From positions 72,946-136,945 of the IMG/VR virus record IMGVR_UViG_3300032038_000010: a DNA stretch of 64,000 nt, one strand, 5' to 3'. This DNA comes from a virus (Duplodnaviria; Caudoviricetes). Positions 460-45,549 of this stretch are shown one piece after another (position 1 is the first letter of the stretch; each line of letters starts with the position of its first letter). Both the position numbers and the translations under genes were made by a program. The notes beneath the pieces were generated by a model. It ran no database searches. It was not told the DNA's origin and worked only from the letters and a program-made list of their open reading frames with translations.

Positions 460-816
460 TTAATAACCTGCTCTTTTTAATATATAACTTAAATCTATTC
501 TTCCCTCATCAGTATACGGAATTGCAATTAGAGTATATCCATGAGCTTTACAGTATTCGCGTTTTTTCATATCATTATATTGCTGTTTACGTAATCCATC
601 CCAACCACCAAATTTTGACTTTGGCTCATAATGTTGTATACCTTGATATTCAATTAAAAAATCAATGTCTCCGTCATCATCAAACACACAAAAATCAAAA
701 CGTAGCGGATGCCCAGTAGCAGATACTAAGTCAGGGAAGATATACTCTTCTTGAAAATCCAATCCCGCATCTTGTAGAATTTCAAAAATTTTAATTTCTC
801 CTCGACTAGCTTTCAT
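460..816 (-). CDS. PD-(D/E)XK / Vsr-like endonuclease
   Basis: SRGE...EY.F.DL...LRFDF...IEYQGIQHY...D..K..YC motif; same family as the C-terminus of 9939-10838. Confidence 0.7.
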   Translation of the reverse strand: MKASRGEIKIFEILQDAGLDFQEEYIFPDLVSATGHPLRFDFCVFDDDGDIDFLIEYQGIQHYEPKSKFGGWDGLRKQQYNDMKKREYCKAHGYTLIAIPYTDEGRIDLSYILKRAGY

Positions 817-16349: not shown

Positions 16350-16416
16350 TATATAACATACATAGTATGCCAATAGGGTTGGGTTATATGACCCAGCCCT
16401 ATTATTTTATAAAATT

Positions 16417-17349
16417 ATGATAATTGTTTTAACAATATTGATTATAATATTAATCATATTGTTATTGAAAATGTGGCAAGATTTAAAACAAACAAAAGCA
16501 TTTAAAGCAAAATAGATTGCTGATGCGACCGCCGCGCAAGAACAATATGATAATCTTATAAAGTCAATTAATGATTTAAACCTTGAAAAGGTTAAATTAT
16601 ATAGTGAAATTGAAACTCAAAAGAAAAATATAAATTCAATATATGAATCTGAAACCGCTCGTATTCAATCTGAGATTGAACGATATAAAGATAAAGCTAC
16701 TTACGCTGCTGAAGAATATGTTAATTCATTAAAACAATCATATGTGAAAGCAAAGTAGCAGCATGACGCACAATTATTACAGTTAGAAGAGGATAAAAAA
16801 GAATCCGAATTAGCTTTAGATAAAATACGTCAATCTTTAAGCGCGGGGGTCCAAGCTAAATTAAGATAGCAAGAAAAACGCACTCAATTAGATTTTTATA
16901 AATTAAACATTACAAATACTGAACTACAAGATATACAATTACTAGAAAATGTAAAATTAAATTTACATAATCCGATAATTTTAAGTAAACTTATCTGGAG
17001 TACATATTTTCAAAAACAAACTAATGAACTATGTAATAGAGTAGTTGGTGTAGATAAAAAATGTGGTATTTATAAAATCACAAATATCAATACTGAACAA
17101 GTATATATTGGACAAAGTGTTGACATTGGTTCTCGTTGGAAACAACATATTAAGTGCGGTCTGGGAATAGACGCTCCCGCAACCAATAAGTTATATAACT
17201 CTATGCAAAAAGATGGAGTTTGGAATTTTTCTTTTGAAGTTCTCGAAGAATGTCCGAAAGATCAACTAAATGAAAAAGAAGCTGAATGGATTAATATGTA
17301 TCAAAGTGATAAATTCGGATATAATAGTACAAAAGGTAATAAAAGTTAA
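16417..17349 (+). CDS. Membrane-anchored coiled-coil GIY-YIG nuclease (3 recoded TAG: 16513, 16756, 16867)
   Basis: One frame with only TAG interruptions: N-terminal TM helix, coiled coil, then CGIYKITN...VYIGQSVDI..RW..H...GYN. Missed by the ORF track. Confidence 0.85.
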
Positions 17350-25906: not shown

Positions 25907-26041
25907 CTGAGCGGCTTGATTGCGGCTGCTATTATCGTAGTCCAAGATTAAACATAGTCTTGGACTTTTTTAATGTGAATTTTACTTTTGAGAAAAAATA
26001 TAGTATAATAAATTATAAAAAGATAGTAAAAGAGGTTAAAT

Positions 26042-27214
26042 ATGATACTTACAAATAAACAAGAAGAAGGTCTTAAACTGGCTGTACAACGCCATAAAGA
26101 CGGAGAAAAGTACACAGTAATATCTGGATATGCTGGTACAGGTAAGTCAACCCTAGTGCGTTTTATTATCGACGCCTTAAATGTAGAGGAAGACAGAGTA
26201 TGTTATACTTCATTTACTGGCAAAGCAGCAGAAGTGCTCCGTAAAAAAGGTAATAGAAATGTATCTACATTGCATAGGCTTTTATATGAACATATCCCGC
26301 GGCCCGCAGGTGGCTTTATTCGTAAAAAGAAGCCTATGATTGATTACGATATAGTAGTCGTAGATGAGGTATCAATGGTTCCGAAGAGTCTTATGGAAGT
26401 ATTGTTTACTCATCCTTGTTATGTTATTTGCCTAGGCGATCCATTCCAGCTTCCACCAATAGATAAAGATGAAGATAATCATTTACTTGACCATCCGCAT
26501 ATTTTTCTTGATGAAATTATGCGGCAGGCCGCAGATTCAGAAATTATCCAGCTTACTATGAAAATAAGAAATAAAGAACCTATTTCTTTATTTAATGGTG
26601 ATAATGTTAAAGTGTTACCAAAAGATCAACTAAATACTGGTATTCTTACTTGGGCGGATCAGGTATTAGTTGCTACTAATGCTAAACGTCAAGCGATTAA
26701 TAACCAAATGCGTATGTTATATCATCATGGCGGCCGCCCTGAAGATGGAGATAAAGTAATATGTCTTCGTAATTATTGGGAAGATACAAATTTAAATGGT
26801 GATGCTCTTGTCAATGGCACTCTTGGTTATATTCATAACCCGTATGAAAGTTTTAATATGCTTCCATCATTTTGTAAAAAGCGACAAGTAGATACTCTTG
26901 AAGCCGAATTTGTAGCAGATGATGGCAACTCGTTTGGCGGATTACAAATGGATTTAAATATGATGCTCACAGGTGATTGCTCTCTTGACTGGCGAGATAA
27001 ATATAAACTTGGAAAAAATCGTAAAACGCAACATCTAGTGCCAAAGGAGTTCGTTTATGGATATGCTATAACTGGTCACAAAGCGCAAGGGTCTGAGTGG
27101 GATAAGGTTACGGTTCTAGAAGAAAAGTTCCCATTCGACAAAAATGAACATGCCCGCTGGCTATATACAGCTTGCACCCGTGCCGCGGATAAACTTGTAT
27201 TGATTCAACAATAA
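26042..27214 (+). CDS. RecD/Dda-like SF1 helicase
   Basis: GYAGTGKST, DEVSM, GDPFQLPP, HKAQGSEW and YTA.TRA motifs. Confidence 0.9.
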   Translation: MILTNKQEEGLKLAVQRHKDGEKYTVISGYAGTGKSTLVRFIIDALNVEEDRVCYTSFTGKAAEVLRKKGNRNVSTLHRLLYEHIPRPAGGFIRKKKPMIDYDIVVVDEVSMVPKSLMEVLFTHPCYVICLGDPFQLPPIDKDEDNHLLDHPHIFLDEIMRQAADSEIIQLTMKIRNKEPISLFNGDNVKVLPKDQLNTGILTWADQVLVATNAKRQAINNQMRMLYHHGGRPEDGDKVICLRNYWEDTNLNGDALVNGTLGYIHNPYESFNMLPSFCKKRQVDTLEAEFVADDGNSFGGLQMDLNMMLTGDCSLDWRDKYKLGKNRKTQHLVPKEFVYGYAITGHKAQGSEWDKVTVLEEKFPFDKNEHARWLYTACTRAADKLVLIQQ

Positions 27215-27230
27215 AAATTGGAGGTAAATT

Positions 27231-27503
27231 ATGATAAAAGGCAAACATCCAAACAAATTTATGTGGACAGCAGATAATTATAGATGGCAGAGAAATGATG
27301 GTACTATAATTAAAGGTTGCGAAAAATTTTTAGAATATAATGTTACTATCAATATGAGGGGACAAGCTGTTACATTAAATTTTATTTCAGATTATCCAAC
27401 TGAAGAAGTTATAGCGCAATTAGAAAATTTTACCTCTAATATGATCAATAATTGTCCCAATTGTATATGGAAAAATTATAAAACTAATAAAGAAGGAGAA
27501 TAA
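27231..27503 (+). CDS. Hypothetical protein
   Basis: GGAGGT RBS; 90 aa. Confidence 0.65.
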   Translation: MIKGKHPNKFMWTADNYRWQRNDGTIIKGCEKFLEYNVTINMRGQAVTLNFISDYPTEEVIAQLENFTSNMINNCPNCIWKNYKTNKEGE

Positions 27504-27505
27504 TT

Positions 27506-27658
27506 ATGGATGTAATTGCTTTTATAAATAAAATGAAAGATGTTTTTTCAGCTCTTCCTGATGAAGAAATAGATACATATAATGATTTATATAATGATGC
27601 TCCAACTGAAGAATTTATTGCATGGATTAATAGAAAGTGTGATGAATTGTGCAAATAA
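27506..27658 (+). CDS. Small hypothetical protein
   Basis: AAGGAG RBS; 50 aa MDVIAFINK... Confidence 0.55.
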   Translation: MDVIAFINKMKDVFSALPDEEIDTYNDLYNDAPTEEFIAWINRKCDELCK

Positions 27659-28110
27659 AAACTTCATATTTTTATCAAATCAGAAATTTTAAGCCGTGGA
27701 TGATACCTGTATCTACGGCTTTAAGTGATCCAATTTGGTACCGTCCGCCGCAAGGAAAAGAATGGTTTGTAGACAAACGAGGAGTAATTAACGGTTTAAA
27801 ATATAAACCACTTATAGTGCAATATGACTGTAATATGTTATGCCCTATATGCGAAGAAAAAGATATTTTAAAAGGTAATTGTTTTACAATGCTTGAATAT
27901 CGTAAGGCTCTTGATACAATAAATAAAGATACTATGTATAAAGCTTTTGAACATTGTATAAATTATTTTAAATTACCTTTTGATGATAATGAACCTATGA
28001 TAGTATTAATGGTACATGAGGCTCCACAAAATCCATGTAGTGAACGTATTGCATTACAAGATTATTTTAAATGTGAAGAATTAAAATATCCAATTGAAGA
28101 TAATTATTAA
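27649..28110 (+). CDS. DUF488-like hypothetical protein
   Basis: IKTSYFY...P.ST...P.WY...HE.P.NPCSER pattern. Confidence 0.55.
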   Translation: MQIKTSYFYQIRNFKPWMIPVSTALSDPIWYRPPQGKEWFVDKRGVINGLKYKPLIVQYDCNMLCPICEEKDILKGNCFTMLEYRKALDTINKDTMYKAFEHCINYFKLPFDDNEPMIVLMVHEAPQNPCSERIALQDYFKCEELKYPIEDNY

Positions 28111-28188
28111 TGAACCACAGTTGTGCTCATTTTTGACTTTTTGAGAAAAAAATGATATAATATTTATATAAAATAAAGAGGTATCAAT

Positions 28189-28599
28189 ATGAAAGAAGTA
28201 AAAAGAACTGAGCGCGGATGGGCTGGACATTTTTGCTGTTCTAGGGACTGCGCCTTCCGCAGAAATACTTTGCTTGAGTATAAAAATAAAAAATGGATAA
28301 TTTCAACAGTAGGTTTACAAATTTGCAGGCATACTATATCGCCCTATTGTAAAGAAGGTGATGTAATGACCATTGGATACAATCGTTGGTATGAAACAAT
28401 GGCATTTGAATCCCTTTATAATGAATATGATGACGCGGATGTTACAAAAGAGATTGAATTTGAAAGTGACTGGGGCATTTGGGGAGAGACATGGGAAGAG
28501 GTTATGGAAAAATATAATCAGCATCCTGATCTTGCAGCAAATGAAATGCATGAAAAAATTGTTGAAGAATTGATGGAGAAAATTAAAAATGAAATATAG
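28189..28599 (+). CDS. Hypothetical protein (ends at TAG; extends to 28617 if TAG is read)
   Basis: GAGGT RBS; RTERGWAGHF motif. Confidence 0.7.
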   Translation: MKEVKRTERGWAGHFCCSRDCAFRRNTLLEYKNKKWIISTVGLQICRHTISPYCKEGDVMTIGYNRWYETMAFESLYNEYDDADVTKEIEFESDWGIWGETWEEVMEKYNQHPDLAANEMHEKIVEELMEKIKNEI

Positions 28600-28780
28600 A
28601 TTAGTAGAAGAGAATAAATTAAGACGTTTAATTGAATCTGAGATGATATATAATGAACTTTGCGCTTGGGGAGTAGATAATTGGACTGGATTTGATGAAG
28701 TTAAATTTCCAGATATTGATGATGTTGAAAAAGAGTTAAATAAGTTTGATAAATTCGAGGAGCGTGATTCTGATGATTAA
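28589..28780 (+). CDS. Hypothetical protein (GVDNW motif)
   Basis: 63 aa, translationally coupled. Confidence 0.6.
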   Translation: MKYRLVEENKLRRLIESEMIYNELCAWGVDNWTGFDEVKFPDIDDVEKELNKFDKFEERDSDD

Positions 28781-28845
28781 ATCATTATATCCACAATTAC
28801 AAACATTGGATATACAGGATTTGATGTAAAAAGGAGGTGGTTAAA

Positions 28846-31800
28846 ATAAATACTCAGGATAGAATGGAAATACACTCTCATACTGAGTATTCCTAATGTC
28901 TAACATTAGGTTACTCGATTGTATCAATAAGCCAATAGATCTTGTTAATCGGGCAATAGAGATTGGTCTTAAAGGTATAGTAATCACAGACCACGAGACT
29001 CTTTCAAGTCATGTTAAATTAAATAAATATCAATTTGAGATTCAGAAAGAACATCCTGACTTTAAAATTGGATTAGGCAATGAGATTTATCTTACAGATA
29101 CAAGAGATAAAAATCAAAAATATTATCATTTTATTTTAATTGCAAAAAATAAAGAAGGATGGAAACAACTTCGTATTTTATCTTCGAGAGCATGGATGCA
29201 AAGTTATTATGATCGAGGATTCGAAAGAGTTCCGACTTTGAAATCAGAAATTGAAGATGTAATATTGAAGAACCCAGGCAATATTATTGCAACTTCAGCT
29301 TGTATCGGCGGAGAGTTATCATCTTCAGTCTTAGCGATGGAAAAGGCTAGACAAGTTGGAGATATAGCGGGAACCGCCGCAGCTTATAATCAAATTACAT
29401 CATTTATTGAGTGGTGTTTAAAAGTATTTGGTGAGGACTTTTTCATCGAATGTGCTCCTAGCGCAAGTAAAGACCAAATTATTGTAAATAAAAAACTTGC
29501 AGATATAGCAAAAGTATATGGAATCAAAATGGTAATTGGTTCTGACGCTCATTACCTTAAAAAAGAAGATAGATTTGTTCATAAAGCATATCTTAATTCA
29601 AAAGGTGGCGAACGTGAAGTAGATAGTTTCTATGAATATGCTTATCTTCAAGATGAAAATGATATTATCGCAAATTTGACTCCATCTATTGTTGACCAAT
29701 ATAATATTATGTGTCAGAATAGTATGGAAATATATGATAAAATTGAAGTTTATGATATTTTACATAATCAAGTTATTCCAAGAGTAGAAGTAAAAGATTA
29801 TCCTAAGAAAGATATTAAAGATGACAAGCATCCAATTTTATCTGATATGTATAAGAGTGATAATCAATATGAAAGATATTGGATTAATGAGTGTGCGGCC
29901 GCCCTCCGTCAGAAAAGACTGGATTCGAAGTCAGAATACTGGGATCGTCTTGAAGAAGAAGCAGATATAAAAAGAACGGTAGGAGAGAAACTGGGAACAA
30001 ATATGTTTTCATATCCTATTACACTCCAGCATTATGTTGATTTATTCTGGGAGTGTGGATCTCTCGTAGGTGCGGGCCGCGGTTCTAGCTGTTCAGGATT
30101 AAATCATTATCTTCTAGGTATCACTCAGCTTGATCCAATCCAGTGGAATCTTCCGTTCTGGAGATTAGAACTTTAAGAAATAGTCTCCCTTCATTGTGAA
30201 ATGAAGTATAAAAAATTTTGTGAACTCTATTACTCAGAGGTGTGAAAAGAACGTATAGTTTTAGTAGGAAATGACTGATTAATCTTTTTGCTAACCGGGA
30301 AGCCTGAGCGGTATGGCCGCAGGTAATCCAGTGCCAAGACTAGAAATAGTAAGGTGTAACGACTATCCGAAAGGAGTAGGGTGGAAGTTGAGTTACCATC
30401 CGAAGTGCAAAAATCTTTAAATATTTTCTGCCACATTGGACAAAACGGTAGAATTTAGTAATCTCAAAAATCATATTATAATAGAAAATATGAAAGGAGA
30501 TTACTAGCATGTTAATCTACAAAATAACAAATAAAATAAATGGAAAATGTTATATTGGTCAAACAATTAAATCTGCTGAACAACGATGGAAAAAACATCA
30601 ATCTCATGCTTTTGGTACTCATCCAAATGATATAAATAAAACTTTATATCAAGCGATAAGAAAATATGGATTAGAAAATTTCACTTTTGAAGTAGTGCAA
30701 GACAATATTGAGACTTTCGAGCAATTAGATAAAGCAGAAATATATTGGATTGATTATTATAATAGTTTTGTAAAAGGATACAATGAAACGTTTGGAGGGC
30801 AACAATATCATCAAATACTTCCAAACAAAGAAATAATTCAAGATTATTACAAAACTAGAAGCGCAAGAAAAACAGCTTTAAATTTTGGAATTGATCATTC
30901 TACTGTAGATGATATTTTAAATCAAAATAATATTCCAAGATTTACTTTTAGACAAGCAGCTGGTCAAAGAATAAAAATTTCAAAAGATGGTTTTGAGAAA
31001 GAATTTGATTCAGTTAAAGATTGCGCTGAATGGTTTGTTAATAATAAAATTTGCAAAACTGATAAAGTAGAAAGCGCTAGAGCAGGATTAAAAACTGCTC
31101 GCAGCGAAAAAGGTAATGGTTTCTACTATGGTTATTTTATAGAAAATATTTAAAGAATAAGATATAGTCTGTGCCATTAGAAATAATGGATAACACGATT
31201 TAAACAAAGATCGAATCGAATTAGGTGATATTGATATTGATATTTGTCCAAGCAAAAAAGGCATCATTCTTAAAAAGATTAAAGAAGAACGCGGACAAAA
31301 ATTTAATTCAGATGTAGATGAACTTTCAAGGGAAAATCTTGGATGTGTATTAGTTGCAACTTTTGGTACAGAAGGGACTCGTTCTACTATCTTAACGGCC
31401 TGCCGCGGATATAGAAGTGAAGAATATCCAGATGGAATTGATGTAGACACAGCACAGTTTTTAGCATCATTAGTTCCACAGGAAAGAGGATTTTCTTGGA
31501 GTCTTTCTGATGTAGTTTATGGTAATAAAGAAAAAGATAGACAAGCATCTGACTTGTTTATTAATGAAGTAAATCAATATCCAGGACTTCTTAATATTAT
31601 GATGGCTATTGAAGGTCTAGTAAATAAAAGAAGTAGTCATGCATCTGGTGTTATCTTCATGGATGAAGATCCATATGAATTTGGTTCATTTATGAGAACA
31701 CCAAAGGGTGAAGTAATCACAGCATTTGATTTGCATGATTGTGAAGCTATTGGTATGACAAAGTATGATTTTCTTGTAACTGAAGTTCAGGATAAATTAG

Positions 31801-33842
31801 TTCAAACAATTAAGTTCTTACAGGAATATGGAGAAATTGAAAAAGATTTATCATTAAGAGAGATATATGATAAATATTTTCATCCAAATGTAATTCCTAT
31901 TGATGATAAGCAGACATGGGAAAATATTAAGAATGGAACAATATTAAATATTTTCCAGTTTGACAGTGAAGTTGGTAGCCAAGCCGCAAAGAAAATTCAA
32001 CCTAGCACAATTTTGGAGTTGGCAGATGCTAATGGTCTTATGCGTCTTATGACATCTGAAAAGGGCGCAGAAACTCCTATGGAAAAATATATAAGATTTA
32101 AAAATAATCTTGATTTGTGGTATAGAGAAATGAATAATGCAGGACTCACAAAAGAAGAACAAAAAGTCCTTGAACCATACTTTAAAAAATCTTATGGAGT
32201 GCCGCCTTCACAAGAGCAATTAATGATGATGTTAATGGATAAAGATATTTGTAATTTTAGTCTTAAAGACGCAAATGCGGCAAGAAAAATTGTCGGGAAG
32301 AAACAAATGTCTAAAATCCCAGCTCTAAAAGAACAAGTATTAGCGCAAGCATCTTCTCCAGCATTAGGACAATATGTATGGAAATGTGGAATCGGCCCTC
32401 AGATGGGTTATTCATTTAGTATTATTCACGCTCTTGCCTATTCATTTATAGGCTATCAGACCGCGTATATTGCAACAAGATGGAATCCAATTTATTGGGA
32501 TACTGCATGCCTTATTGTTAATAGCGGCAGCCTTGAAAATGATGATATGGAATATGAAGAAGATGAAGATGGTGACATCATTGGAGCAGCTAAGAAAAAA
32601 GAGTCTGCAACTGATTATTCAAAATTAGCAAAAGCATTAGGTGAAATTATTGGTGCTGGTATCAATGTTAGTTTGATTGATATTAATAAATCTTCATATG
32701 GATTTGAACCTGATATTGACAATAATCAAATTTTGTTTGGTATGAAGGCATTAAGTAATATTGGAGCGCCAATTATTGAAAAGATTATTGAAAATAGACC
32801 ATATAATAATTTCAAAGAATTTTTAAGAAAATGCCCATTAAATAAAACTGCAATAATTAGTTTGATTAAAAGTGGGGCATTTGACAAACTTGAAGATAGT
32901 GTTGCTCAAAAGATGAATATTGAGCCACGGAAATTAATTATGGCATATTATTTATCTATTGCGAGTGAACCAAAAGCTAAATTAACATTACAGAATTTTA
33001 ATGGATTAATTGAAAAAGGTTTAATTCCAAAAGAATTAGATTTTGAAAAAAATACTTTTATTCTTAACAAGATTTTGAAAAAGAATAAAATAAAAGAGTA
33101 TTATAATGTAACTCCAGCAAATATTGATATTAATAAATTAATTGAATACTTTGGAGATATATTTGAAGTAATCAATAATCAATATTTAGTAAATCAAAAA
33201 ACTTGGGATAAAGTATATAAAAATGTGATGGACAAAGCTAGAGATTGGCTTAAACAAAATCAAAACGAAGTATTAAATCAATATAATACAATTTTGTTTA
33301 AAGAAACATGGAATAAATATGCTTCTGGTACAATTTCAGCATGGGAAATGGAAGCATTATGTTTTTATTATCATGACCATGAACTACAAAATATTGATAC
33401 TGCTAAATATGGAGTTATAGATTTTAGTAACTTATCAACTAATCCTGTGATAGATAGAACTTTCAAAAGAAATGGAAAAGAAATTCCGTTGTATAAATTA
33501 ACTAGAATTGCAGGAACAGTAATTAGTAAAAATGATGCAAGACATTCTGTAGCTTTATTGACAACATCAGGAGTGGTAAATGTAAAATTTACAAAAGACT
33601 ATTATGCACTTTATGGGCGGCAGCTTAGTCAAGTACAACCTGATGGAACTAAAAAAGTTATGGAAAAAGGTTGGTTTGTTCGTGGAACTAAATTATTAAT
33701 AACAGGATACCGCCGCGATGATACATTTGTATCAAAAAATTACAAATCTAACGGTGGGCATCAGTTATATAAAATTCTTAACGTCGAAGGTAAAAATATA
33801 ATAATTACGCATAACAGATGGGGACAAACAGATAATGACTAA
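28846..33842 (+). CDS. dnaE: DNA polymerase III alpha (DnaE-type); N-terminus interrupted by an 8-nt insert; spliced (exon 1 to 30165, exon 2 from 31198)
   Basis: PHP motif HSHTEYS/NIRLLD, TDHE, GAGRGSS; splicing gives FWR-Y-LNKDR..GDIDID; HASG, KYDFL, YSF..HALAY. Start is probably ATA 28846 after AAGGAGGTG, or ATG 28864. Confidence 0.9.
30166..31197 (+). mobile_element. Group I intron in Pol III alpha gene
   Basis: P1 GGAGAU/GUCUCC with U-G at the splice site; GACTATC and AAGATATAGTC; terminal TAACACG. Confidence 0.92.
30509..31153 (+). CDS. Intron-encoded GIY-YIG homing endonuclease
   Basis: LIYKITN...CYIGQT...RW..H...GYN.T.GG. Confidence 0.9.
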   Translation: MLIYKITNKINGKCYIGQTIKSAEQRWKKHQSHAFGTHPNDINKTLYQAIRKYGLENFTFEVVQDNIETFEQLDKAEIYWIDYYNSFVKGYNETFGGQQYHQILPNKEIIQDYYKTRSARKTALNFGIDHSTVDDILNQNNIPRFTFRQAAGQRIKISKDGFEKEFDSVKDCAEWFVNNKICKTDKVESARAGLKTARSEKGNGFYYGYFIENI

Positions 33843-34146
33843 TAACGTAAATCATCCTTCACATTATGAAGGTAACACTTCTATTGAATGTATTGATGCT
33901 ATGCGGCTTGGTCTTGGCGACCAAGCTGTATATGATTTTTGTTTATGCAACGCATTTAAATATATGTGGCGATACAAAAATAAGAACGGAGCTGAAGATT
34001 TAGATAAGGCTGAATGGTATATTAAAGAAGCCAAGAAAATCAATATTGACTTATTTAATCAGCCGCTTTTTTCACAGTCTGATAAGCAGCTTGGCTCTTT
34101 CACTAGCGTATTGACAGAGATTCGAAACAAGGACAAAAATAATTAA
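33835..34146 (+). CDS. DUF3310 (T7 gp1.7-like nucleotide kinase) protein
   Basis: VNHPSHY, IECID, NAFKY.WR...KNG.EDL.KA.WY. Confidence 0.85.
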   Translation: MTNNVNHPSHYEGNTSIECIDAMRLGLGDQAVYDFCLCNAFKYMWRYKNKNGAEDLDKAEWYIKEAKKINIDLFNQPLFSQSDKQLGSFTSVLTEIRNKDKNN

Positions 34147-34227
34147 TCTACTATATATGCTTTTCATATATAATAAGATTCCCATAGGAATCCAGAATTA
34201 ACATAATAATACTTAGGAGGATTCATA

Positions 34228-37200
34228 ATGTTGAATATTCAAAAAAGAGATGGGCGTATTGTCCCATTCGATCATTTTAAAATTGTAGATGCAGTATTAA
34301 AAGCTTTCCAGCAAGTAGACGGTGAACTCACTGATTATGCTTATGAAAAAGCTGGTAATATTGCTGATTATATTAAAGAATACGCAGAAGAAGCAAAACA
34401 TCCGCTTACAGTAGAAGAAATTCAAGACCTTGTTGAAAACGGCTTGATGGCTACAAAGCGCAAAGATGTTGCAAAAACATATATTAAATATAGAGAAAAT
34501 CGTACTCATGTAAGAGAAGGCAAAGCAGATTGGATGCAATTAGTTGCAGAAAAAGTAAAAGCAGCTAATGTTCAAAATCAAAATGCTAATGTAGATGAAC
34601 ATTCATTTGGCGGCCGCAAGGGCGAAGCTGATTCTGTACTGATGCGAAAAATTGCTCTTGACTATATTATGTCCGATTTAGCAAAGAATAATCATCTTAA
34701 TAATGAAATTTATACTCATGATTTGGATAGCTATGCAGTGGGTATGCATAATTGTTTAACTATTCCTTTTGATGATTTACTTGCTAATGGGTTTAACACA
34801 AGACAAACTGATGTTCGACCTGCAAGTAGCATAAATACTGCTTTCCAGTTAGTAGCAGTTATTTTCCAGCTTCAGTCACTGCAGCAATTTGGTGGTGTGA
34901 GCGCATCTCATATTGATTGGACAATGGTTCCTTATGTGAGAAAATCTTTTTATAAACACTGGAAAGATGGATGTAAATATATTTTAAAAATTGATGTTTC
35001 TAAATATGATGGTATTATTACAAATGATATGTCTATTACTGACGGATCATATAAAACTTTTGCAGGCGCTTATGATTATGCGATGGACATGACTATAAAA
35101 GAAACATACCAAGCAGTAGAAGGAATGTATCATAACCTTAAATAATTAGGGCGACTTAATAGTAATATTAAGAACTTAGCTATCTAAACGGGGAAACTCT
35201 TAAGGCAAAAGACAATCCCGTGCTAAATTTGTATCATCAAATAAAAAAGAAAGGAGGTATATAATGTATATAGTATATCAACATAAAAATAAAATAAATG
35301 GAAAAGTTTATATTGGTATAACAATGCAAGACCCAGAACGAAGATGGCGTCATGGAGAAGGTTATAAATCAAGTCCACATTTCTATGCAGCTATTCAAAA
35401 ATATGGATGGGATAATTTTGAACATAATATATTATTTGAGAATTTAACTAAAGAAGAAGCTTGTCAAAAAGAACAAGAATTAATTACAGAATTTAATTCT
35501 ATAAATAGAAAATATGGATATAACTCTACATCTGGTGGAGATGTATTCACTATGAACGATGAAACTAAACAAAAAATTTCTCAAGCAATGATGGGAAATA
35601 AAAATGGTTTAGGACATCCTTGCTCAGAAGAAAAAAAGAAAAAAATTAGTGAAGCTCAAAAAGGGAAAAAATTAACAGAAGAACATAAACAAAAACTTTC
35701 TGAAGCGGCTAAAAAACGACATACACCTTGTTCTGAAAAAGCTAAAGAAAATATACGAAAAGCTTCTCATAAAAAACCTGTTTATTGTGAAGAATTAAAT
35801 CAAGTTTTTGAATCAGTGCAAGAGTGTAGCCGACAATTAGGTATCCCTGCTACAAATATTTCAAAATTATGTAATGGAAGAGGTAAAACACTTAAAGGAT
35901 ACCATTTAAAATATTATGATGATACAATAAATGCCTAACGACTATCCCTATAAAACGGGGAGTAGAGTCAAGCGACTCGAAATGGTAGCCTCCTCTATTT
36001 AGAGGGCGAAGATATAGTCTAATCTTTATGGTGACATAAAGAAGTTCATAAGAGAACTGCATAAGATTAGCGACCTTATGTGAATATAAATGTAATACAT
36101 TACAAAGTAGAAGCGGTAATCAGCTGCCTTTTACTTCTATTAATTATGGTACTTGCACACTTCCTGAGGGTCGTCTTGTTATTAAAGCAATACTTGATAA
36201 ATCTATTGAAGGTGTTGGAAAACTTCATAAGACAGCTATTTTCCCTTGTGGAATATTCCAATGCATGACTGGAATAAACCGTAAACCAGAAGATCCTAAT
36301 TATGATTTATTTAAATTAGCACTTCGTTCTACATCACAAAGATTGTATCCTAACTATGTAAATGTAGACTGGTCAGTCAATGAAGGATATGACCGAGACG
36401 ATCCACGTACCTATGTTAGCACAATGGGATGTAGGACCTACAACGGAAGTGACATGAATGTGGACCCTGGAGTTAACTCACAGACAAAAGATGGAAGAGG
36501 CAATATTGCTCCTGTAACAATTATTATGCCTACTCTCGCGATGGAAGCAAAACAATATATACTTGACCATGATATTACTTATGTTGATGAACAACAACAT
36601 CAGCAAATTATCATTGATACTTTCATGGAAATTCTTGATAGAAAAATTCATGAAGCAAAAACAATCCTTGAAGAAAGATTTAATTGGATTTGCGCTCAAG
36701 ATCCATCTTCTGCAAAATTTATGTATGAAAATAAAACTATGCTTGGATATGATGGCAAAACAGTATTCAGTGCTATGAAACATGGAACATTAGCTCTTGG
36801 TCAATTAGGTCTTGCAGAAACGCTTCAAATTTTAATTGGTAAAAACCAAACAACAGATGAAGGAATGAAACTTGCTAAACAAATTGAATCTTTGTTTAAT
36901 AAGCGTTGTTTTGAATTTAAGCATGAATTACATCATACTGAACAATGGGGAGATTATTATCTCAATTATGGAGTATATTATACCCCTGCAGAAAACTTAT
37001 GCTATACTGCAATGAAAAAATTTAAAGATAAGTATGGTGTAATTGACAAGGTATCTGACAAAGACTTCTTTACCAATAGTATTCATGTACCAGTTTGGGA
37101 AAAAATTAGTCCTTTTGATAAAATTGATATTGAAGCACAATTAACTGGATACAGTAATGCAGGATGTATTACTTATGTTGAACTTGATAGTGGAACTAAA

Positions 37201-40375: not shown

Positions 40376-43066
40376 TTAACTAAAGAATAACATATCTCCA
40401 ATATTATGGCTATGTCTTTTTCTTTTTTTATCTTCCTCCTGCTTTATATAATATAGTCCATATATAAAAGCAGAGAATTTATCTTTAGGTATTCCTCTAT
40501 TACTTTGTTTCAGAATAATATTAACGCCTTCATTATCTTCAACAAGATTAAGCATTTGCTATTTTAATCTAGTTGTCAAATTGAACGGTACAAGATAAGT
40601 ATTTCGCTCATCTGAAGTCATCGTCTGTCCGCGCTTAGTCCCCATCAATTTAAGTTTAGCCTGCTGTTCATCAATTAAGAATTTAATCTTACCACTGCTC
40701 ATTTGAGTTTGTGCATAAGAATACGCTTCTGTATTAATAGGAGCATTAGCCTTCATTAAGAACATAGCGTCATTCTCAAAGTCTGGGCCTTTTGCTTTTT
40801 TATACTGATTAGCAACATCTTCATTAGTTCCGCCCTCAACCCCAAATGGAGGTAAATTATCTCCAGTCTCAGGATCAATTTGAGCTTTTGTCATAAAATC
40901 AATCAAACCGACACCAAGACCATTAGCATCAATAGATAATATTCTAGCATGATATTTATAATACAATTTCTTTAATTTAACTGCTTGTACTTCAAAGTCT
41001 TCTGCTTCATAAGTATATATATTAACTAATGATTTAAGCGCCGCCCCTTGCGGCTGAGGATAAACTTTAAATACACAAGCTTCTGTAGTACATCCGATAC
41101 GGCCTACATCAACCCCAATTACATAATAAGCATTTTTAGCATTGCGCGAACTGTACTCATATTCAGGCTGATTTAATGTTCTATGTTTATCAAACTTCTC
41201 TGCTGAATAAAAAGCATTTTCTGCATCACCAGACCAAATTGAACGATATTCTCGATCAAAAGAATCTTCATTATATGTACCTTGTAATTTTAATTGATCT
41301 ACAAAGTCTTCATCAAGAAGTCCTTCATTAACTGGTGTTTCATAAGTACCGCCAAGAATCATATATTTATCTGGTTCAATAACTGATTGAACAAAGATTT
41401 CAATTAGCTTGTCATAAGCAAAAGAGTTTTTCCAACCTGCGGTAGTAATATAAATTTGCGATTTATTAGGTAATTCAGTTCTATCTCTTGAACCGTCAGG
41501 TAAAAGTCTATCTACGTTAGTAGTAGGAATAAGAACTTCATTAAGAATATCTCCATCAATTAATACACATTCCTCAAGGAGAAGACTATTACGACGTTGG
41601 CCTCTAGAACTTTCTCTTGCTGCAAGAATGTCAATTTCTGAACCGTTTTTAAATACATAATGAACATCATCTTTTGTGTGCTTAGTTTTACCACGTTCCC
41701 AGTTAATTTCATTGGCAAGAGGTGGAATCAGCCGACAAATTTCATCTATCTTAGCGATGGTAATGGAGGCAGCCTGTTCTTTCAGGATTGTTATCATAAG
41801 GCTTTTTATCCTTATTTCTTATACTTGTTATTCGTATAAGCTCAGCATATCTTTTCATCTACGACTTTACGTTTAGATGTCGCGGCCTCGTGGAGGGATT
41901 ATACTTGTCAATCTCACCCTCTATGCGTTGCCCCTGACTCCTTATCTGCTAAAGAAGCCTTCGGTTCGGATTAGCATTTCAGCTTTCCCGCTTAATTCCG
42001 CGATTTAAAGGTTTTATATATTAAATTTCTTTAATATTGGGCAAATTAATATTTTTATGATATTGACTACCATTAGTAATAAAGTCTTGATAATGTTCAT
42101 ATTTTCTATCTAAATAAATATTACTATCTTTATATAAATAAGTAAGAAAATTATAAACATCTATTAGACTACTAAAAACATATCTTTTTGCTCCGTCTTC
42201 TCTATGGCAAATAAAAATTTTATTATTTTTATTAATATCTAAATCTAGGGCATTTAAACTGCCTTTAATAAAGTCTTCTGTTCCAATCCATCCAACTTGA
42301 AAACAACTAGACGTATTAGTAAACCATCCATCTCCATCAAAATATCCTCTTAAAAAATGTCTCGTTAATTCAGAAGGAACTTGTTCCTAAGTCGGATATT
42401 TTAAAATTAATGATTTTTTAGGAACACAGCCTTTATTAATTAAATCTTGTTTACATTTATCACTTCTAAAACTCATTCGATATGATTTAGAAGATTCTCT
42501 ATACCCAATTTTATTAGATATTCCCATAAAATTTCTAAATTTTTCAATTTGATGTAAATCTTTTTCTGCTAATCCCAATTCGATTTTATCTTCTTTAGAA
42601 CCAACAGAACCATCTGCGTAAAGAAAACCAAGCCAATATGCTTTTTCTTCTGTGTCAATATGCTCAAATTGTGTAAGGACGTTTTTTGTACTCATTTCGT
42701 ACTCCTCCTGTAAAAATATTAAATAAAAAGTTTACCCCCTGTACTAATCGCGGCGTGCTACCCTGGGTAGAACACTGCTCTTAGCATCAAGCCCATCATT
42801 GATAAGAAAGATTTAGAGAAAGCACGAGGGAAAGTAGCATACACAAAGCGATGCCGCATGATCACTCTTAAATAAACTCTTTGATAATAGAAGAATTTAA
42901 AAGTTGAATCTTCGCCTTTTATTTGATCAACAAATATATCTGGATAAGCTCGATAAAAAGAAATCAAATTCCGCATTTCAGGAAGAATTGCTCTAATTCT
43001 ATCTTCAGTTACGTCTTGCTGGACAATCTTATCATCAGATAGAGACAATAAATTAGCTAGACTCAT
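40376..43066 (-). CDS. terL: Terminase large subunit, spliced (exons 43066-42734 and 41782-40376; recoded TAG at 42758 and 40559)
   Basis: FPRAFSKSF (Walker A region), spliced TGG|KEQA, RGQRR, LEE, DREY, GVDVGR, IDANGLG; KDKFSA nuclease motif lies after the TAG. Confidence 0.9.
41783..42733 (-). mobile_element. Group I intron in terminase gene
   Basis: Exon ends GGGGGU; intron ends ...AAUCCUG; core elements including AAGATATGCT lie at about 41800-42000. Confidence 0.88.
42021..42695 (-). CDS. Intron-encoded double-motif LAGLIDADG homing endonuclease (recoded TAG at 42387)
   Basis: YWLGFLYADG and FLRGYFDGDG motifs on either side of the TAG; YL.RK tail. Confidence 0.9.
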
Positions 43067-44328
43067 GACTCTTCCTCCTCAGACTCGCCTGCATCTTTAG
43101 CGGCTTCCGCGGCTTTAAACTCCTCAAAGTCAGCCATATCTTGATCTGTGACTGGCACATAATTAAGTCCTTGAGATTTTGCTTCCTATCTGTCTCGCTT
43201 TTGAGACTCTTGAATCTCTTTCTTCTTCATGTAATCTTCAATTTCTCTTGACAGCGAAGGATCTTCTTTAACAAGATTACTATAATATTCTTTCATATCA
43301 TTAATATCTTTATCAACTATATCAAGAGGAACTTCAAGATTCCATTGAGGTATTTTTCCACCTTCTTTTTCACAAAATGCTACTACTTGACCAATAGCAT
43401 CAAAGATACCATCTTTATCGACCTTATTCTGTGCAGCGGTAAAGTTTGCGGATTTTCTTAAAGACTCATAGGTTCTAGTTAATTTAGAGAATCCATCTAG
43501 GTCTCCCATGTCAAGAGCCTGATTCATTTTAAGATTAACTTTGCAAATAGTAATCAATGTATTTTGGCTGTCTGGAGTTTCATCGCTGATACCAAATTTC
43601 TTAGCCATTTTAACATAATTACTTTCAAGCTGTACCCATTCGTTAGGCTTATAAAGGCGGCCCCACTTCATAGCAAGATATTTTTTATCATCATCTGTAA
43701 GGTCGGCCGCAGGATTCGGGAGGTCAGTCTCGCTAATGAAAGCATCCTAGTCCATCCGATTACCGACCGCCGCATCTATGTCTTTACTATCTGTTGGTGC
43801 AAGCTCCGCATTTTGTATCTCTGTTGGCATGAGAGTTTGATATTCCGCTTTAGAAATCTTACCTTCCGCAAGGTCATTCCGTAGTTTTTGTTCATACTCA
43901 TGCCGCTCTTGTATTTCTTCTTCTGTCTCTTTCCGCGCTTTTGCTTTATTCATTTCAAGAAGCATTTCTGTGTCATCCCAACCATAGCTAGTCCATGGTT
44001 TGATCTTCATAGCAGACAAATACTTACCTACGACAGAAATACCAGTTAGATTTGGATTTTTAGCAAAAGCGCGGTCTCTTAATGTATTCCACTTCTCTGG
44101 AATATAAGGAACATCCAAATCTTTCAAAATCCATGTAAAAGTTTCTGGGTCAAAATTATCTACATGCATAGTAAGACAACGCTTACACATTTTTGTCTTA
44201 CTACCATCTTTGTACTGATAAAAATTATTTGATTTGCTCCAAGTTCTTTCCTTTTCACAATAGCACATATCTTTTTCATCAGGGATTTGACCTTTTGGCT
44301 CGACTTTTTTAGTTTCTTCTTCAGCCAT
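43063..44328 (-). CDS. Conserved protein upstream of terL, terminase small-subunit candidate (recoded TAG at 43747 and 43186)
   Basis: Read-through of two TAGs gives one ORF whose TGA overlaps the terL ATG (ATGA); Cys cluster and KWG motif. Confidence 0.75.
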
Positions 44329-44334
44329 TAATTA

Positions 44335-45480
44335 TCAAACTCCTTTCACTAATTTAATTTGCTTATGCTTATTTTTTGCATTGCGGCAATCTTTACATAT
44401 AGAATAAAAGCCATCTTTACTTGTCTTATTTTTTGAAAAGAACATACTGTGAGCTAATTTAATTTGACCACAGCGTGAGCATCTCTTCCATTTACCCTTT
44501 TCTACATTGGTATAATACCAGGTCAAATAATCTTTTTGAGCGTGGTCCGCAATCATTTTAGGTATTTTTTTGCGCCAGAGAGACGAAAGATATTCAATGG
44601 AGTGCCGCACACCAAAATCTCGTTGAAGAAGGCTTTGTATTTCTTCATTAGTCTTACCATCAATTTTATAAATAACTAAATCATAATACATAGGATATTC
44701 TTCTTCAAGAGTCTAATCAATAAGATTTTCTAAATCAATAATTGCCCATTTAGCATCACTATTGACTTTATCCCAACTATCCATTTTTAGTTTAGAATAA
44801 TGACATAGCACTGCGCTTACTACATCTGGGTTGAGGAAACTGAAGCCTCTAACCTATAGAGTTCCATCTTCTTTAATTTTAATATCTTCTTCCCAAGACA
44901 TAGTAGAGAAGCTCTTGATGCCATTTGAATAAGGCATTGTAGGATGATAGGCTGCTTTAAGTACATATTGGTCTTTCCGCATTTCTATCATTTGCTTTTT
45001 CAATAAATATTTCTTTTTACCTGTTGCTAAATCGCATTGCTTTTCAATTTCCGCAATACTATCTCTAAGTTCTTTTAGCCCAGGTATTTCTGCGACATCT
45101 GTTTCAGTAATTCCAATTTTAGGTGTGAAGATAATATTTTTATCATTTGCAATCATATTATAAATACCATCTTCGCCATTTTCAAAAGTAGCAACTAAAC
45201 CTTCAAAAGACATTTCACGCTTATTGACAGTTACCATTCTATTCTAAGTAATAATCTTCTTTTGTTTACGTTCTTCTTTGTCCATAGCAAATACTATATA
45301 GTCAGATAAAATTTCTAAGTAACGTGGTGTTAATTTTTCTGAAGGAGTTTGCTCAATAATTTTTTTAACTAATTCATTGCGGGCAGCCGCTGTCTAGAGC
45401 TTATAGTCTAGTTTAAGTGGTTGATTAGACTCGTCTAATTCCGCATTAGACGGGGCCGCCGCATTATTATATTCTTCCAT
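44335..45480 (-). CDS. Hypothetical regulator with HTH-like region and C-terminal Zn finger (recoded TAG at 45394, 45244, 44854, 44713)
   Basis: Single frame from ATG 45480 (AGGAG RBS) with only TAG interruptions; CSRC...CKDC. Confidence 0.75.
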
Positions 45481-45549
45481 GCTTAAGTACTCCTTTTATG
45501 TTTATTAGCCTCCAACTTCAGGTAAGCCTTATTTCAATTCTATACTTAT

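Follow-up and report, generated by a model that had tools for sequence, protein, structure and literature searches.

Few departures from co-linear decoding are as rare as programmed bypassing. As natural cases, the papers cited here accept T4 gene 60 and its homologs, the yeast mitochondrial byps and, as a candidate, phage phiHau3. The gene 60 bypass lies within a MobA homing-endonuclease element (bioRxiv 10.1101/2024.12.09.627546, 10.1101/2022.08.31.505936), and a current model holds that pairing of the exiting mRNA drives it (bioRxiv 10.1101/2024.12.09.627546). In the terminase gene of Streptomyces phage phiHau3, two 10-nt inserts are bypassed at UUA, and the junction peptide of one site was detected by mass spectrometry in E. 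coli (PMC10732093). The Magnusiomyces byps comprise, according to a review, 81 instances of short inserted blocks in various mitochondrial genes, with up to 12 per coding sequence. Shorter counterparts of gene 60 have, in the words of a 2016 NAR review, "long been presumed", with no natural stop-hop known. Synthetic "stop-hops", engineered constructs described as low in efficiency, were obtained in E. coli (Weiss et al. 1987, summarised in PMC5009743), and the same summary knows of no natural in-frame stop-hop. Finally, in a 70S system, forward (+1) shifting on CUUUGA is promoted by an upstream hairpin that refolds next to the E site (PMC6321510).

We analysed the 5' end of a dnaE gene in a 64,000-nt stretch of Caudoviricetes phage DNA (hereafter the window; all features below are on its plus strand). 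The gene encodes an SPbeta YorL-like Pol III alpha, and it probably carries an orphan copy of a short programmed bypass cassette, or stop-hop, a reading that is inferred with comparative support and without joined-peptide data. An extended Firmicute-type Shine-Dalgarno sequence, AAGGAGGTG (28831-28839), with counterparts upstream of dnaE in all relatives, precedes a first open reading frame (ORF1, 28846-28893, assigned by frame and homology) that reads ATA(28846) AAT ACT CAG GAT AGA ATG(28864) GAA ATA CAC TCT CAT ACT GAG TAT TCC, or I-N-T-Q-D-R-M-E-I-H-S-H-T-E-Y-S, and contains PHP metal ligands 1 and 2 (HxH). Its start codon is uncertain and non-canonical. The best-placed candidate, which remains only possible, is ATA 28846, located 8 nt after GGAGG and homologous, codon for codon, to the ATG start of two interrupted relatives (L037 and L040); GTG 28837 and ATG 28864 are the other in-frame candidates. 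The last codon, TCC (Ser, 28891-28893), is the putative take-off codon and is followed directly by the stop TAA (28894-28896). A second frame runs ATG(28896) TCT(28899-901) AAC(28902) ATT AGG TTA CTC GAT and remains open as far as 30176; its ATG (28896-28898) overlaps the stop as TAATG and could serve as a restart codon under a rival reading discussed below. The 8 nt that would not be decoded by a new tRNA (28894-28901) consist of the 5-nt gap TAATG and the landing codon TCT (28899-28901). Skipping them restores E-Y-S-N-I-R and repairs PHP motif I, with AAC 28902 as the resume codon of the main dnaE frame. One protein is divided between two frames, HSHTEYS / 8 nt / NIRLLD, where about 71 relatives have a continuous motif. 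The existence of these 8 nt in the window genome rests on one assembly only, plus the presence of the whole cassette signature. An earlier note, made by reading this DNA without any comparison, had placed both frames, TCC, TAA, ATG, the landing TCT and two stems, and had claimed that an 8-nt skip restores the continuous PHP motif; all of these coordinates held to the base, and so did the claim.

The same codon is interrupted in other phages. Including the window, 16 distinct dnaE genes carry inserts of 6 nt (TAAACT, TAGTCT, TAATCT), 7 nt (TAAATTT, TAACTCT, TAGCTCT, TAGTGCT), 8 nt (TAATGTCT, TGATGTCT, TGATGTCA) or 9 nt (TAAAAAGCT, TAGGTATCT, TAGGTGTCA) at this position. Identical inserts were found in independent metagenomes (L036 = L042 = L021; L037 = L047; L216 = L218). 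The first codon of the insert is a stop in 16/16. Since 13 of the 16 genes were recovered by a search pattern that demanded a stop after a Ser codon (any TCN allowed), this feature is unbiased in only the four distinct cases recovered by homology alone, and in all four the stop directly follows the take-off codon. The inserts represent all three frames, so that no single frameshift or readthrough rule fits them, whereas a hop fits each; only a hop yields the H-x-H-x3-S-N-x-R-x-x-D spacing in all 16 genes. The take-off codon is TCY in 16/16 interrupted genes versus 6/68 uninterrupted ones, in which the Ser codon at this position is TCA in 20, TCG in 15, AGY in 27 and TCY in 6, and a scan for an AGY take-off codon returned no case. 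The landing codon, i.e. the codon preceding the resume codon, is TCT in eight genes, TTT in three, TCA and GCT in two each and ACT in one. It is therefore UCN in 10/16 and near-cognate in 6/16, and it never differs from the take-off codon by more than one mismatch. A single tRNA-Ser can, by the established rule of G34 wobble, read both UCC and UCU.

A second signature shared by the interrupted genes is a stem-loop upstream of the gap. In the window, its 5' arm AATACTCAG (28849-28857) and 3' arm CTGAGTATT (28883-28891), the latter ending on the first base of the take-off codon, enclose a 25-nt loop, as supported by folding and covariation; the stem has a free energy of -13.8 kcal/mol (z = -3.5 in a shuffle test). 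A stem of 7-11 bp linking the start-codon region with the codons just before take-off is present in 16/16 interrupted genes and in 0/~71 uninterrupted ones. Its duplex energy ranges from -9.5 to -11.7 kcal/mol in 16/16 interrupted genes versus -1.3 to -8.3 kcal/mol in the control rows (72 rows, one of which is a mislabelled copy of the interrupted L048), and the two sets of genes separate completely (Mann-Whitney p = 5e-10). The register is fixed in 16/16, the 3' arm lying at -10 to 0 relative to the take-off codon. Aligned on the stem, 94.1% of cells are paired, compared with 81% after shuffling (0/500 as high) and 28-46% in slid controls, and both sides changed at three pairs (CG/AU/UA, CG/GC and AU/UA), demonstrating covariation. 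These changes were counted on a trimmed alignment (A3), in which one gene, L137, is still partly misaligned; MAFFT on the full 95-nt regions threw the 5' arms out of register. Two uninterrupted genes have no significant fold (L002, z -0.3; L024, z -0.4), as opposed to the window (z -4.0) and the interrupted L093 (z -4.7). Because 15 other distinct relatives are interrupted at this site, each with its own matching 5' stem, the insert of the window is more than a chance event. The earlier note had proposed aligning related dnaE 5' ends; this alignment was positive, giving a stop-led 6-9-nt insert at the same codon together with a covarying stem.

The take-off codon and the stop are also embedded in a second hairpin, CCTAATGT-CTA-ACATTAGG (28892-28910; -7.8 kcal/mol, z -5.1, 0/200 shuffles as good). 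This hairpin, with an 8-bp stem (arms 28892-99 and 28903-10, loop CTA), takes in the whole stop codon together with two take-off-codon bases and the first landing-codon base. The earlier note had described the two stems as competing, and this claim failed: the core stems, which abut at 28891/28892, are compatible and form a joint fold (28840-28925, -22.1 kcal/mol, z = -4.0), and only a GAGTA/TACTC extension would compete with the 5' stem. In L093 the same architecture is built from a different sequence, TCTTAGGT/ACCTAAGA, with a perfect 8 bp. The take-off hairpin is strong in only 4/16 interrupted genes, and we conclude that it is not a family-wide requirement.

The two His residues ahead of the gap supply ligands 1 and 2 of a nine-ligand PHP metal site that is otherwise intact. 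The family retains all nine PHP ligands, with HxH before the gap and D6, H31, E61, H76, C134, D215 and H217 invariant after it, a pattern that agrees with Table 1 of PMC3666897. The HxH is kept upstream of the gap in all 16 interrupted genes, where its His codons vary synonymously between CAT and CAC, and none of the ~71 uninterrupted relatives compared has an indel between HxH and LLD. Against a profile of 71 uninterrupted N-termini, the hop product of the window scores 113.8 bits, the frameshift product 107.0 bits and the restart product 92.6 bits; in 15/16 interrupted genes, the hop product surpasses the frameshift or readthrough product by 6-9 bits and the restart product by ~20 bits. The nascent chain before the gap is 12-18 aa long, and its RFEVHSHTxYS segment is an ordinary conserved N-terminus that is present in uninterrupted genes too.

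Apart from the gap, dnaE is intact over ~1300 codons. The first part after the gap (28902-30164; Pfam PHP and DNA_pol3_alpha) completes the PHP domain, begins the Pol III alpha palm and is 70% identical to residues 16-445 of the uninterrupted L002 protein. The second part (31200-33842; Pfam, tblastn) encodes palm, fingers and HhH and has no in-frame stop or TAG. Between them lies an intron-like insertion of ~1035 nt (30165-31199; tblastn, Pfam GIY-YIG) with a GIY-YIG homing-endonuclease ORF (30509-31153); tblastn alignments with the L002 and L008 proteins skip from 30164 to 31200 with one residue lost, and an Rfam search of 28000-34500 at E up to 1 gave no match, including in this 1-kb insertion. 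The window phage recodes TAG in its late genes. No tRNA-Ser or suppressor tRNA helper was found among the 13 tRNAs of the record, which is 89% complete, and none in the window. A different recoding site occurs in the same gene family: in 8/80 relatives, the classical +1 site CTT TGA C lies five codons past the hop position, and the heptamer is assigned to L222, L226, L238, L243, L274 and L284 only. This RF2-type heptamer is not found in the window, which reads TTA CTC GAT at that place. As the +1 class shows only a weak tendency towards a 5' stem (p = 0.04), we do not claim one for it.

In the relatives, the interrupted state is associated with homing endonucleases. An ORF for such an enzyme ends within 250 nt of the site in 6/16 interrupted genes and in 0/68 uninterrupted ones, and remnants or more distant copies in three further interrupted genes bring the number to 9/16; these upstream ORFs were missed by Pfam and recognised by PHROGs and tblastn. 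In the gene tree, the interrupted state changes at least 6-8 times (at least eight changes are needed, six of them forced by well-supported branches), and the interrupted L216 is sister to the uninterrupted L024, at 0.08 and 0.09 substitutions per site. None of the window ORFs at 27649-28780 matches a nuclease, tblastn with the nucleases of the relatives detected nothing at 26000-29000, and four paralogs of these nucleases are located elsewhere in the genome, none of them next to the dnaE gap. The cassette of the window is thus an orphan copy, since no nuclease gene lies next to dnaE. Most probably, the insert arose as part of a homing-endonuclease cassette that disrupts the target of its own nuclease, located in the conserved DNA of motif I, the nuclease gene beside dnaE having since been lost from the window genome. 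A sharp recombination boundary around the cassette could not be resolved, as identity profiles only rise gradually into the gene.

In the bypass reading, ribosomes would initiate at the strong Shine-Dalgarno sequence, translate ~16 codons and then stall, peptidyl-tRNA-Ser being paired with UCC (28891-93) in the P site while UAA occupies the A site. The anticodon would release before the release factor acts, the mRNA would slide by 8 nt, and the same tRNA would re-pair at UCU (28899-901), decoding restarting at AAC 28902. The predicted product is one continuous chain, ...HSHTEYS-NIRLLD..., in which the nine PHP metal ligands are complete. The 5' hairpin would probably drive and rectify the slide. 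Its 3' arm covers the 9 nt immediately before the take-off codon and could zip with the arm near the start codon only as these bases exit the ribosome, i.e. after a forward move of about the 6-9 nt seen in the gaps. This driving role is a model, because the 3' arm is inside the ribosome at take-off. The second hairpin (28892-28910), which like that of T4 gene 60 contains the take-off codon and the stop, should aid dissociation and impede access of the release factor. In the absence of read, RNA or protein data, the hop, how efficiently it occurs and what each element contributes are all inferred. Several observations weigh against a bypass: the non-canonical ORF1 start in the window, the six near-cognate landing codons, a take-off hairpin that is strong in a minority of the genes, the lack of a nuclease gene beside dnaE in the window, and the low efficiency described for synthetic stop-hops. 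The bypass, which the earlier note had guessed from one sequence, is supported by the relatives, and this support is comparative, not experimental.

The earlier note had also likened the locus to T4 gene 60 on the basis of matched codons, an adjacent stop and stem-loops, and all three features are present in the window. In both systems, two ORFs specify one essential replication-related protein, one tRNA reads the take-off and landing codons, the stop lies directly 3' of take-off, a hairpin contains the take-off codon and the stop, and a 5' stem-loop is found upstream. As with gene 60 and MobA, the insert sits in highly conserved DNA with a free-standing homing-endonuclease gene alongside in many relatives, the bypass is kept but the nuclease lost in some copies, and the host-gene tree shows several recent gains. 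By contrast, the two systems differ in gap length (6-9 nt in dnaE, 50 in gene 60), in the matched codon (Ser UCY versus Gly GGA), in the gene (dnaE versus a topoisomerase subunit gene) and in the hosts (Bacilli-type Firmicutes versus gamma-proteobacteria), and there is no sequence homology. The dnaE 5' stem abuts the take-off codon, whereas the gene 60 stem-loop lies 9 nt upstream, and the dnaE cassette has no GAG mini-Shine-Dalgarno 6 nt before landing. With the dnaE site only 12-18 codons from the start, there would be little room for a long nascent-peptide signal of the gene 60 type.

The other systems resemble the dnaE locus in part. Two relatives (L048 and L137) have exactly the design of the synthetic stop-hops, and a third (L040) has the same design with a near-cognate landing codon; unlike these constructs, the dnaE cases are natural and conserved, with several gap lengths and a dedicated stem. 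The phiHau3 terminase shares the short coding gap in an essential phage gene, the landing codon and a proposed stimulatory 5' stem-loop, but its trigger is a rare sense codon, UUA, with a limiting tRNA and not a stop, and its gene, host and proposed lysis-lysogeny logic differ. Decoding at the +1 site CUU UGA C of prfB (RF2) is likewise slowed by a stop in the A site, with forward movement favoured by a duplex that forms just behind the ribosome (PMC6321510, PMC3639245); the window, however, has no CUUUGA, would require a +8 move to a non-overlapping codon, and has no Shine-Dalgarno-like stimulator. As in the Magnusiomyces byps, short non-coding inserts in conserved genes would be removed at translation, but the byps are mobile elements resembling GC clusters, in another translation system.

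The main rival for the window is termination-reinitiation, which we consider unlikely. Ribosomes would stop at TAA 28894-96, release a ~16-aa peptide and restart at ATG 28896, making a polymerase that begins M-S-N-I-R without the two His ligands of motif I; this enzyme would have no proofreading unless the free peptide complemented it. In favour of this reading, stop-start overlaps occur at the same place in the window (TAATG), in L216 and L217 (TGATG) and in L221 (TAG-GTG), gene callers would take 28896-30176 as the ORF, and spontaneous 70S sliding and re-initiation on polycistronic mRNAs are known (PMC11194080). That these four genes have an ATG or GTG placed exactly for restart looks more than accidental, and this is a weak point of the bypass reading. 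However, 12/16 variants lack a canonical start codon (ATG, GTG or TTG) at the gap or beside it, so that restart, the alternative raised in the earlier note, is ruled out as a general explanation; in the window alone it remains possible. Restart is further opposed by the conservation of HxH upstream of the gap under synonymous change, unexpected for a discarded peptide, and by the invariance of all nine PHP ligands otherwise. It leaves the Ser-like landing codon, the TCY take-off codon and the insert-only 5' stem unexplained, and the sole Shine-Dalgarno-like sequence before ATG 28896 is a GAG at 28885-87.

Conventional recoding with extra residues is very unlikely. The window would need a +2 or -1 frameshift (leaving S-M-S-N or S-L-M-S-N), the 7-nt variants +1 shifts, and the 6- and 9-nt variants readthrough of the stop. 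The connecting frames are free of stops inside the inserts, the CTT TGA C site is used in the same gene family, and late-gene TAG recoding could read the in-frame TAG variants. Against this, three or four different mechanisms would be required at one site, tRNA-Ser is unable to re-pair in the +1 or -1 frame (UCU to CUU, UCC to UUC), and the in-frame stop is TAA, which is poorly read through, in L040, L137 and L037. Two to three extra residues would be placed between ligands 2 and 3, a region without indels in the ~71 uninterrupted relatives, the profile scores are 6-9 bits below those of the hop product, and Ser-like landing codons are not predicted.

An unrescued lesion or an artefact is likewise very improbable. 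The 8 nt would then be an assembly error or else a recent scar, left for instance by nuclease repair or by a template switch that duplicated ACATTAGG in inverted orientation, with dnaE inactivated or truncated as a result. In line with a quasi-palindrome template switch, CCTAATGT exactly matches the reverse complement of 28903-10, and the window is a single assembly whose exact cassette pattern matches no other IMG/VR contig. However, the window has the covarying 5' stem, TCC take-off and TCT landing typical of the whole class, the remainder of dnaE is intact, equivalent inserts recur across independent metagenomes, and L093 has its analogous perfect hairpin with another sequence. RNA-level excision, by a self-splicing intron or similar, is not supported, the insert being only 8 nt long and without an Rfam match in the region searched.

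One contig, L302, considered as a second copy of the window cassette, was a false match; a near-identity search of cultured phages gave no match, and short-query blastn with the window and L093 cassettes gave chance matches only. No culturable interrupted example was found, and five cultured or GenBank-deposited relatives (Geobacillus GR1, Phass-1, Enterococcus VPE25, Staphylococcus DH5 and Enterocloster CB457P1) appear uninterrupted; in four of the five, the match begins 33-66 nt inside the annotated CDS, and DH5 has no annotation to confirm it. We found no published report of such a dnaE gap in the literature searched.

If the hop occurs, gene callers will give N-terminally truncated polymerases, or polymerases without the PHP metal site, for these phages. 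The 16 natural variants, with their different gap lengths (6-9 nt), stops, landing codons and hairpin sequences, form a ready-made mutational series, and the minimal system of ~90 nt at the very start of an ORF should suit reporters or in vitro work. The cassette could address what drives forward sliding, notably the pairing of exiting mRNA. A bolder reading, which we regard as unlikely, is that the dnaE 5' end is a release-factor-gated switch and not merely a tolerated scar. It is based on two unrelated devices, the stop-hop and the RF2-type +1 site. Each has become fixed on repeated occasions within the first 25 dnaE codons, and both would make polymerase synthesis depend on the slowness of stop reading. 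Given the recoding of TAG in late genes, such a gate could link the amount of replicase to the termination state during infection. Were this true, the TAATG restart could set the ratio of proofreading-proficient full-length enzyme to enzyme without HxH, and the upstream refolding hairpin would be a general natural stimulator of forward motion for bacterial ribosomes. Finally, the locus provides a second, independent link between a bypass insert and a homing endonuclease, suggesting that recoding is a general tactic of selfish DNA, which could thereby disrupt its own target within an essential motif without harm to the protein.

The window covers 64 kb at the right-hand end of a 136,945-bp IMG/VR virus record. 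On its plus strand, a strong Shine-Dalgarno sequence (SD; AAGGAGGTG, 28831-28839), read from the sequence, precedes a frame encoding I-N-T-Q-D-R-M-E-I-H-S-H-T-E-Y-S, which ends with TCC at 28891-28893 and is immediately followed by the stop TAA (28894-28896). A second frame of 426 codons starts at the ATG at 28896, overlapping the stop, and reads M-S-N-I-R-L-L-D, with its TCT codon at 28899-28901; Pfam detected in it a PHP domain followed by the beginning of the Pol III alpha palm. When 8 nt are taken out, the continuous motif HSHTEYSNIRLLD is obtained. An earlier note had proposed that ribosomes hop from TCC, the take-off codon, to TCT, the landing codon formed by the last three bases of the insert, and resume at AAC (28902). 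All its coordinates held on re-reading of the window, confirming the observation itself, and the bypass interpretation is supported by comparative evidence. We consider that ribosomes probably do hop the 8-nt gap, although this rests on comparison and direct proof is missing.

The true start codon of this 5' ORF is unclear, several in-frame candidates being present at 28837-28866. ATA 28846 lies 8 nt past GGAGG and matches, codon for codon, the ATG start of two related loci (L037 and L040), and ATA AAT ACT CAG is kept throughout one clade of relatives (L036, L100, L133, L162, L209). GTG 28837 lies within the extended SD, and ATG 28864 corresponds to a position inside the protein (the F or M of RFEV/RMEL). 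A near-consensus promoter with a TG extension (TTGACT-17-TATAAT, 28133-28161) precedes two small ORFs of unknown function (28189-28599 and 28589-28780) located upstream of dnaE and likely co-transcribed with it; uninterrupted relatives have instead an extended -10 promoter immediately ahead of dnaE.

The alignment of related dnaE 5' ends, suggested by the earlier note as a check, came out positive, as the insert recurs and the stem co-varies. Of 26 homologous IMG/VR loci, a further two have an interruption at exactly the same codon, L004 (TAT TCT TAG TCT AAT) and L021 (TAT TCT TAAATTT AAT), and searching viral contigs, species genomes and metagenomes with sequence patterns brought the count to 16 distinct interrupted sequences, window included, two of the cases lying within MAGs labelled uncultured Bacilli. 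The inserts comprise 6 nt (TAAACT, TAGTCT, TAATCT), 7 nt (TAAATTT, TAACTCT, TAGCTCT, TAGTGCT), 8 nt (TAATGTCT in the window, TGATGTCT, TGATGTCA) or 9 nt (TAAAAAGCT, TAGGTATCT, TAGGTGTCA). A second sample of 80 loci, picked by homology only, contained 68 uninterrupted genes, 3 hop-type genes, 1 gene cut by a contig end, and 8 with a different device (CTT TGA C).

Every insert opens with a stop codon (TAA 9, TAG 5, TGA 2; n = 16). The search pattern demanded this stop in 13 cases; it is also present in the 4 distinct cases that came from homology alone, and no homology-sampled locus was interrupted at this codon without it. All 16 interrupted genes have TCT or TCC as their take-off codon, with search patterns that accepted any TCN; in uninterrupted genes, the same codon is TCA (20), TCG (15), AGT (15), AGC (12), TCT (4) or TCC (2). 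The three bases ahead of the resume codon (TCT 8, TCA 2, GCT 2, ACT 1, and TTT 3 in one lineage) all belong to the Ser box or are one mismatch away. Insert lengths span all three frames, and three of the in-frame inserts use TAA. In every case, the hop product restores the invariant H-x-H-x3-S-N-x-R-x-x-D spacing. Scored against a profile made from 71 uninterrupted N-termini, it exceeds the frameshift or readthrough product by 6-9 bits and the restart product by ~20 bits in 15/16 genes. All nine PHP metal-binding residues (ligands) are retained across the family in the order H, H, D, H, E, H, C, D, H, which is the canonical pattern of Table 1 of PMC3666897; they were also assigned by alignment to the Taq enzyme 2HPI. 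Ligands 1 and 2 form the HxH upstream of the gap, which is kept in 16/16 interrupted genes with synonymous CAT/CAC changes, indicating purifying selection on a segment that restart would discard.

The strongest comparative evidence for bypass is the 5' stem. In the window, it pairs 28849-28857 with 28883-28891 (-13.8 kcal/mol, z -3.5), and the entire 28840-28925 region has a folding energy of -22.1 kcal/mol (z -4.0). All interrupted genes have such a stem: the 9-11 nt up to and including the first take-off base form a helix with sequence located at the start codon or immediately past it, the 3' arm covering the codons T-E/H-Y and the loop spanning 15-31 nt. Duplex energies range from -9.5 to -11.7 kcal/mol in 16/16 interrupted genes versus -1.3 to -8.3 kcal/mol in 72 control rows, without overlap (p = 5e-10, not corrected for phylogeny; the control rows include one mislabelled copy of the interrupted L048). 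Four helix types were found (AATACTCAG/CTGAGTATT; TACTCTG/CAGAGTA; ATAATGAGT/ACTCATTAT; AATGTTCAGT/ACTGAATATT). In the in-register stem alignment, 94.1% of cells are paired, compared with 81% when shuffled (0/500 as high) and 28-46% in slid controls, with two-sided changes at three pairs. The fold is not significant in uninterrupted relatives (z about -0.3). The stem is confined to genes with the insert and changes together with the adjoining codons, from which we infer that decoding across the gap is under selection.

The 3' hairpin of the window is a perfect 8-bp helix (28892-28899/28903-28910; -7.8 kcal/mol, z -5.1) that encloses two take-off-codon bases, the stop and the first landing-codon base. 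The earlier suggestion that the two stems compete failed, as the hairpins at 28849-28891 and 28892-28910 abut. L093 has a 3' hairpin of the same design with another sequence (TCTTAGGT/ACCTAAGA), and L048 and L216 have a strong hairpin beginning at the landing codon instead. The remaining interrupted genes show only 4-6 bp at this position, and hence the 3' hairpin is real in the window but lineage-specific.

In the mechanism we propose, the ribosomal P site would hold UCC and the A site UAA, with release slow enough for the peptidyl-tRNA-Ser to unpair; the mRNA would slide 8 nt, the tRNA would re-pair with UCU, and AAC would be decoded next. The 3' arm of the 5' stem would be inside the ribosome (-8 to 0) at take-off; a slide of 6-9 nt would place it at least ~6-9 nt behind the P site, approximately at the position of the 5' stem-loop of gene 60 (9 nt 5' of take-off). 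Zippering of ~-10 kcal/mol could then pull the mRNA forward and prevent its return, a role that we infer and regard only as a possibility. It is compatible with the proposal that pairing of the exiting mRNA drives forward bypassing (bioRxiv 10.1101/2024.12.09.627546), and with the stimulation of a +1 shift on CUUUGA by an upstream hairpin refolding beside the E site in a 70S system (PMC6321510).

The serious rival for the window is restart at TAATG, by reinitiation at ATG 28896. The same layout exists in L216 and L217 (TGATG) and in L221 (TAG GTG). However, 12/16 interrupted genes have no start codon at the gap, and restart is therefore not a general account; it also leaves the TCY take-off unexplained, as well as the landing codon, the stem and the HxH conservation. 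We judge it unlikely as the explanation, although hop and restart may both occur. Frameshifting or readthrough leaving extra residues is less likely, since the lengths cover all frames and +1, +2 or -1 shifts as well as stop readthrough would be needed at one site. An unrescued scar or an artefact is also less likely; several inserts were found identical in contigs of different metagenomes and are thus not assembly noise. Bypass remains the favored reading.

A second device was found in 8/80 relatives (six distinct sequences), in which one added T turns the L-L-D codons, located five codons past the hop site, into TTA CTT TGA C. CTT TGA C is identical to the heptamer at which RF2 (prfB) frameshifts by +1, and reading on in the +1 frame recovers D-C-I-N-K-P without added residue. 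The matches start at L222:497, L226:1501, L238:1439, L243:1501, L274:1501 and L284:1501, with TTA CTT TGA C(or T) lying ~10 nt ahead of each. These loci lack an SD-like stimulator, and an upstream stem is only weakly enriched (p = 0.04). Because hop inserts and CTT TGA C both occur there, the first 25 dnaE codons appear to have repeatedly gained stop-dependent forward recoding. The phage also recodes TAG: each of its late or structural frames on the minus strand contains 13-23 in-frame TAGs (20 in a 3150-codon frame and 23 in 1616 codons, outside the window at genome 31843-60468), and in-window TAG frames lie at 16357-17349 (4 TAG), 43063-44331 (2) and 44335-45495 (4). Replication genes, dnaE included, have no in-frame TAG, and the 13 tRNAs identified in the record, which is 89% complete, include no suppressor. 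This tRNA cluster (genome 17578-25806, outside the window) includes tRNA-Ile(UAU), reading AUA, Leu(UAA) and Arg(UCU), and contains no tRNA-Ser.

The nearest named relatives of the polymerase are SPbeta YorL-type DnaE enzymes (~40% identity). Uninterrupted IMG/VR relatives (~1320 aa) match 28896-30164 and 31200-33833 at ~70% identity with one residue missing between the blocks, indicating that the gene is otherwise intact apart from the 8-nt gap and an intron-like insertion of ~1035 nt (30165-31199) splitting the palm domain. This insertion encodes a GIY-YIG (plus NUMOD-like) endonuclease (30509-31153; Pfam GIY-YIG) and matched no group I or II intron model in Rfam. The dnaE frame is cut at similar or other positions in several relatives, making dnaE a hotspot for selfish elements.

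A gene tree of the 420 residues that follow the site requires the interrupted state to have changed at least 8 times, well-supported branches forcing 6 of these changes, and L216 (interrupted) is sister to L024 (uninterrupted). The window protein clusters with uninterrupted L002, L003 and L005, yet the gene carries a 5' cassette of the kind seen in the distant L036/L209/L162 clade, suggesting cassette transfer by recombination; no sharp boundary could be resolved in the identity profiles. PHROGs searches detected HNH/homing-endonuclease ORFs immediately upstream of dnaE in L048, L040, L093, L036, L100 and L216, and ~600 nt upstream in L137, and tblastn found nuclease remnants in L162 and L209. 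An adjacent nuclease (end <=250 nt from the site) accompanies 6/16 interrupted versus 0/68 uninterrupted loci. The genes in L036 (3029-3931), L100 (same) and L216 (9018-9908), approximate limits of ~900 nt aligned by tblastn, contain only ORFs of 61-104 aa under table 11, and are pseudogenes or have recoded stops. No nuclease gene adjoins dnaE in the window, which we interpret as an orphan cassette copy. Four paralogs of this nuclease family (one partial) lie elsewhere in the phage genome (window 472-807, minus strand; window 10080-10802, plus strand; genome 27473-28192 and 63356-64186). The pattern follows the logic of MobA/gene 60, in which the insert shields the element from its own nuclease and bypass is retained in some phages after nuclease loss (bioRxiv 10.1101/2022.08.31.505936).

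That preprint does not mention polymerases, and we found no description of dnaE bypass in the literature searched; according to a 2016 review, no natural stop-hop was known and shorter counterparts of gene 60 had long been presumed (PMC5009743). On comparative evidence only, the window case likely represents a new short, hairpin-assisted form of programmed bypassing.
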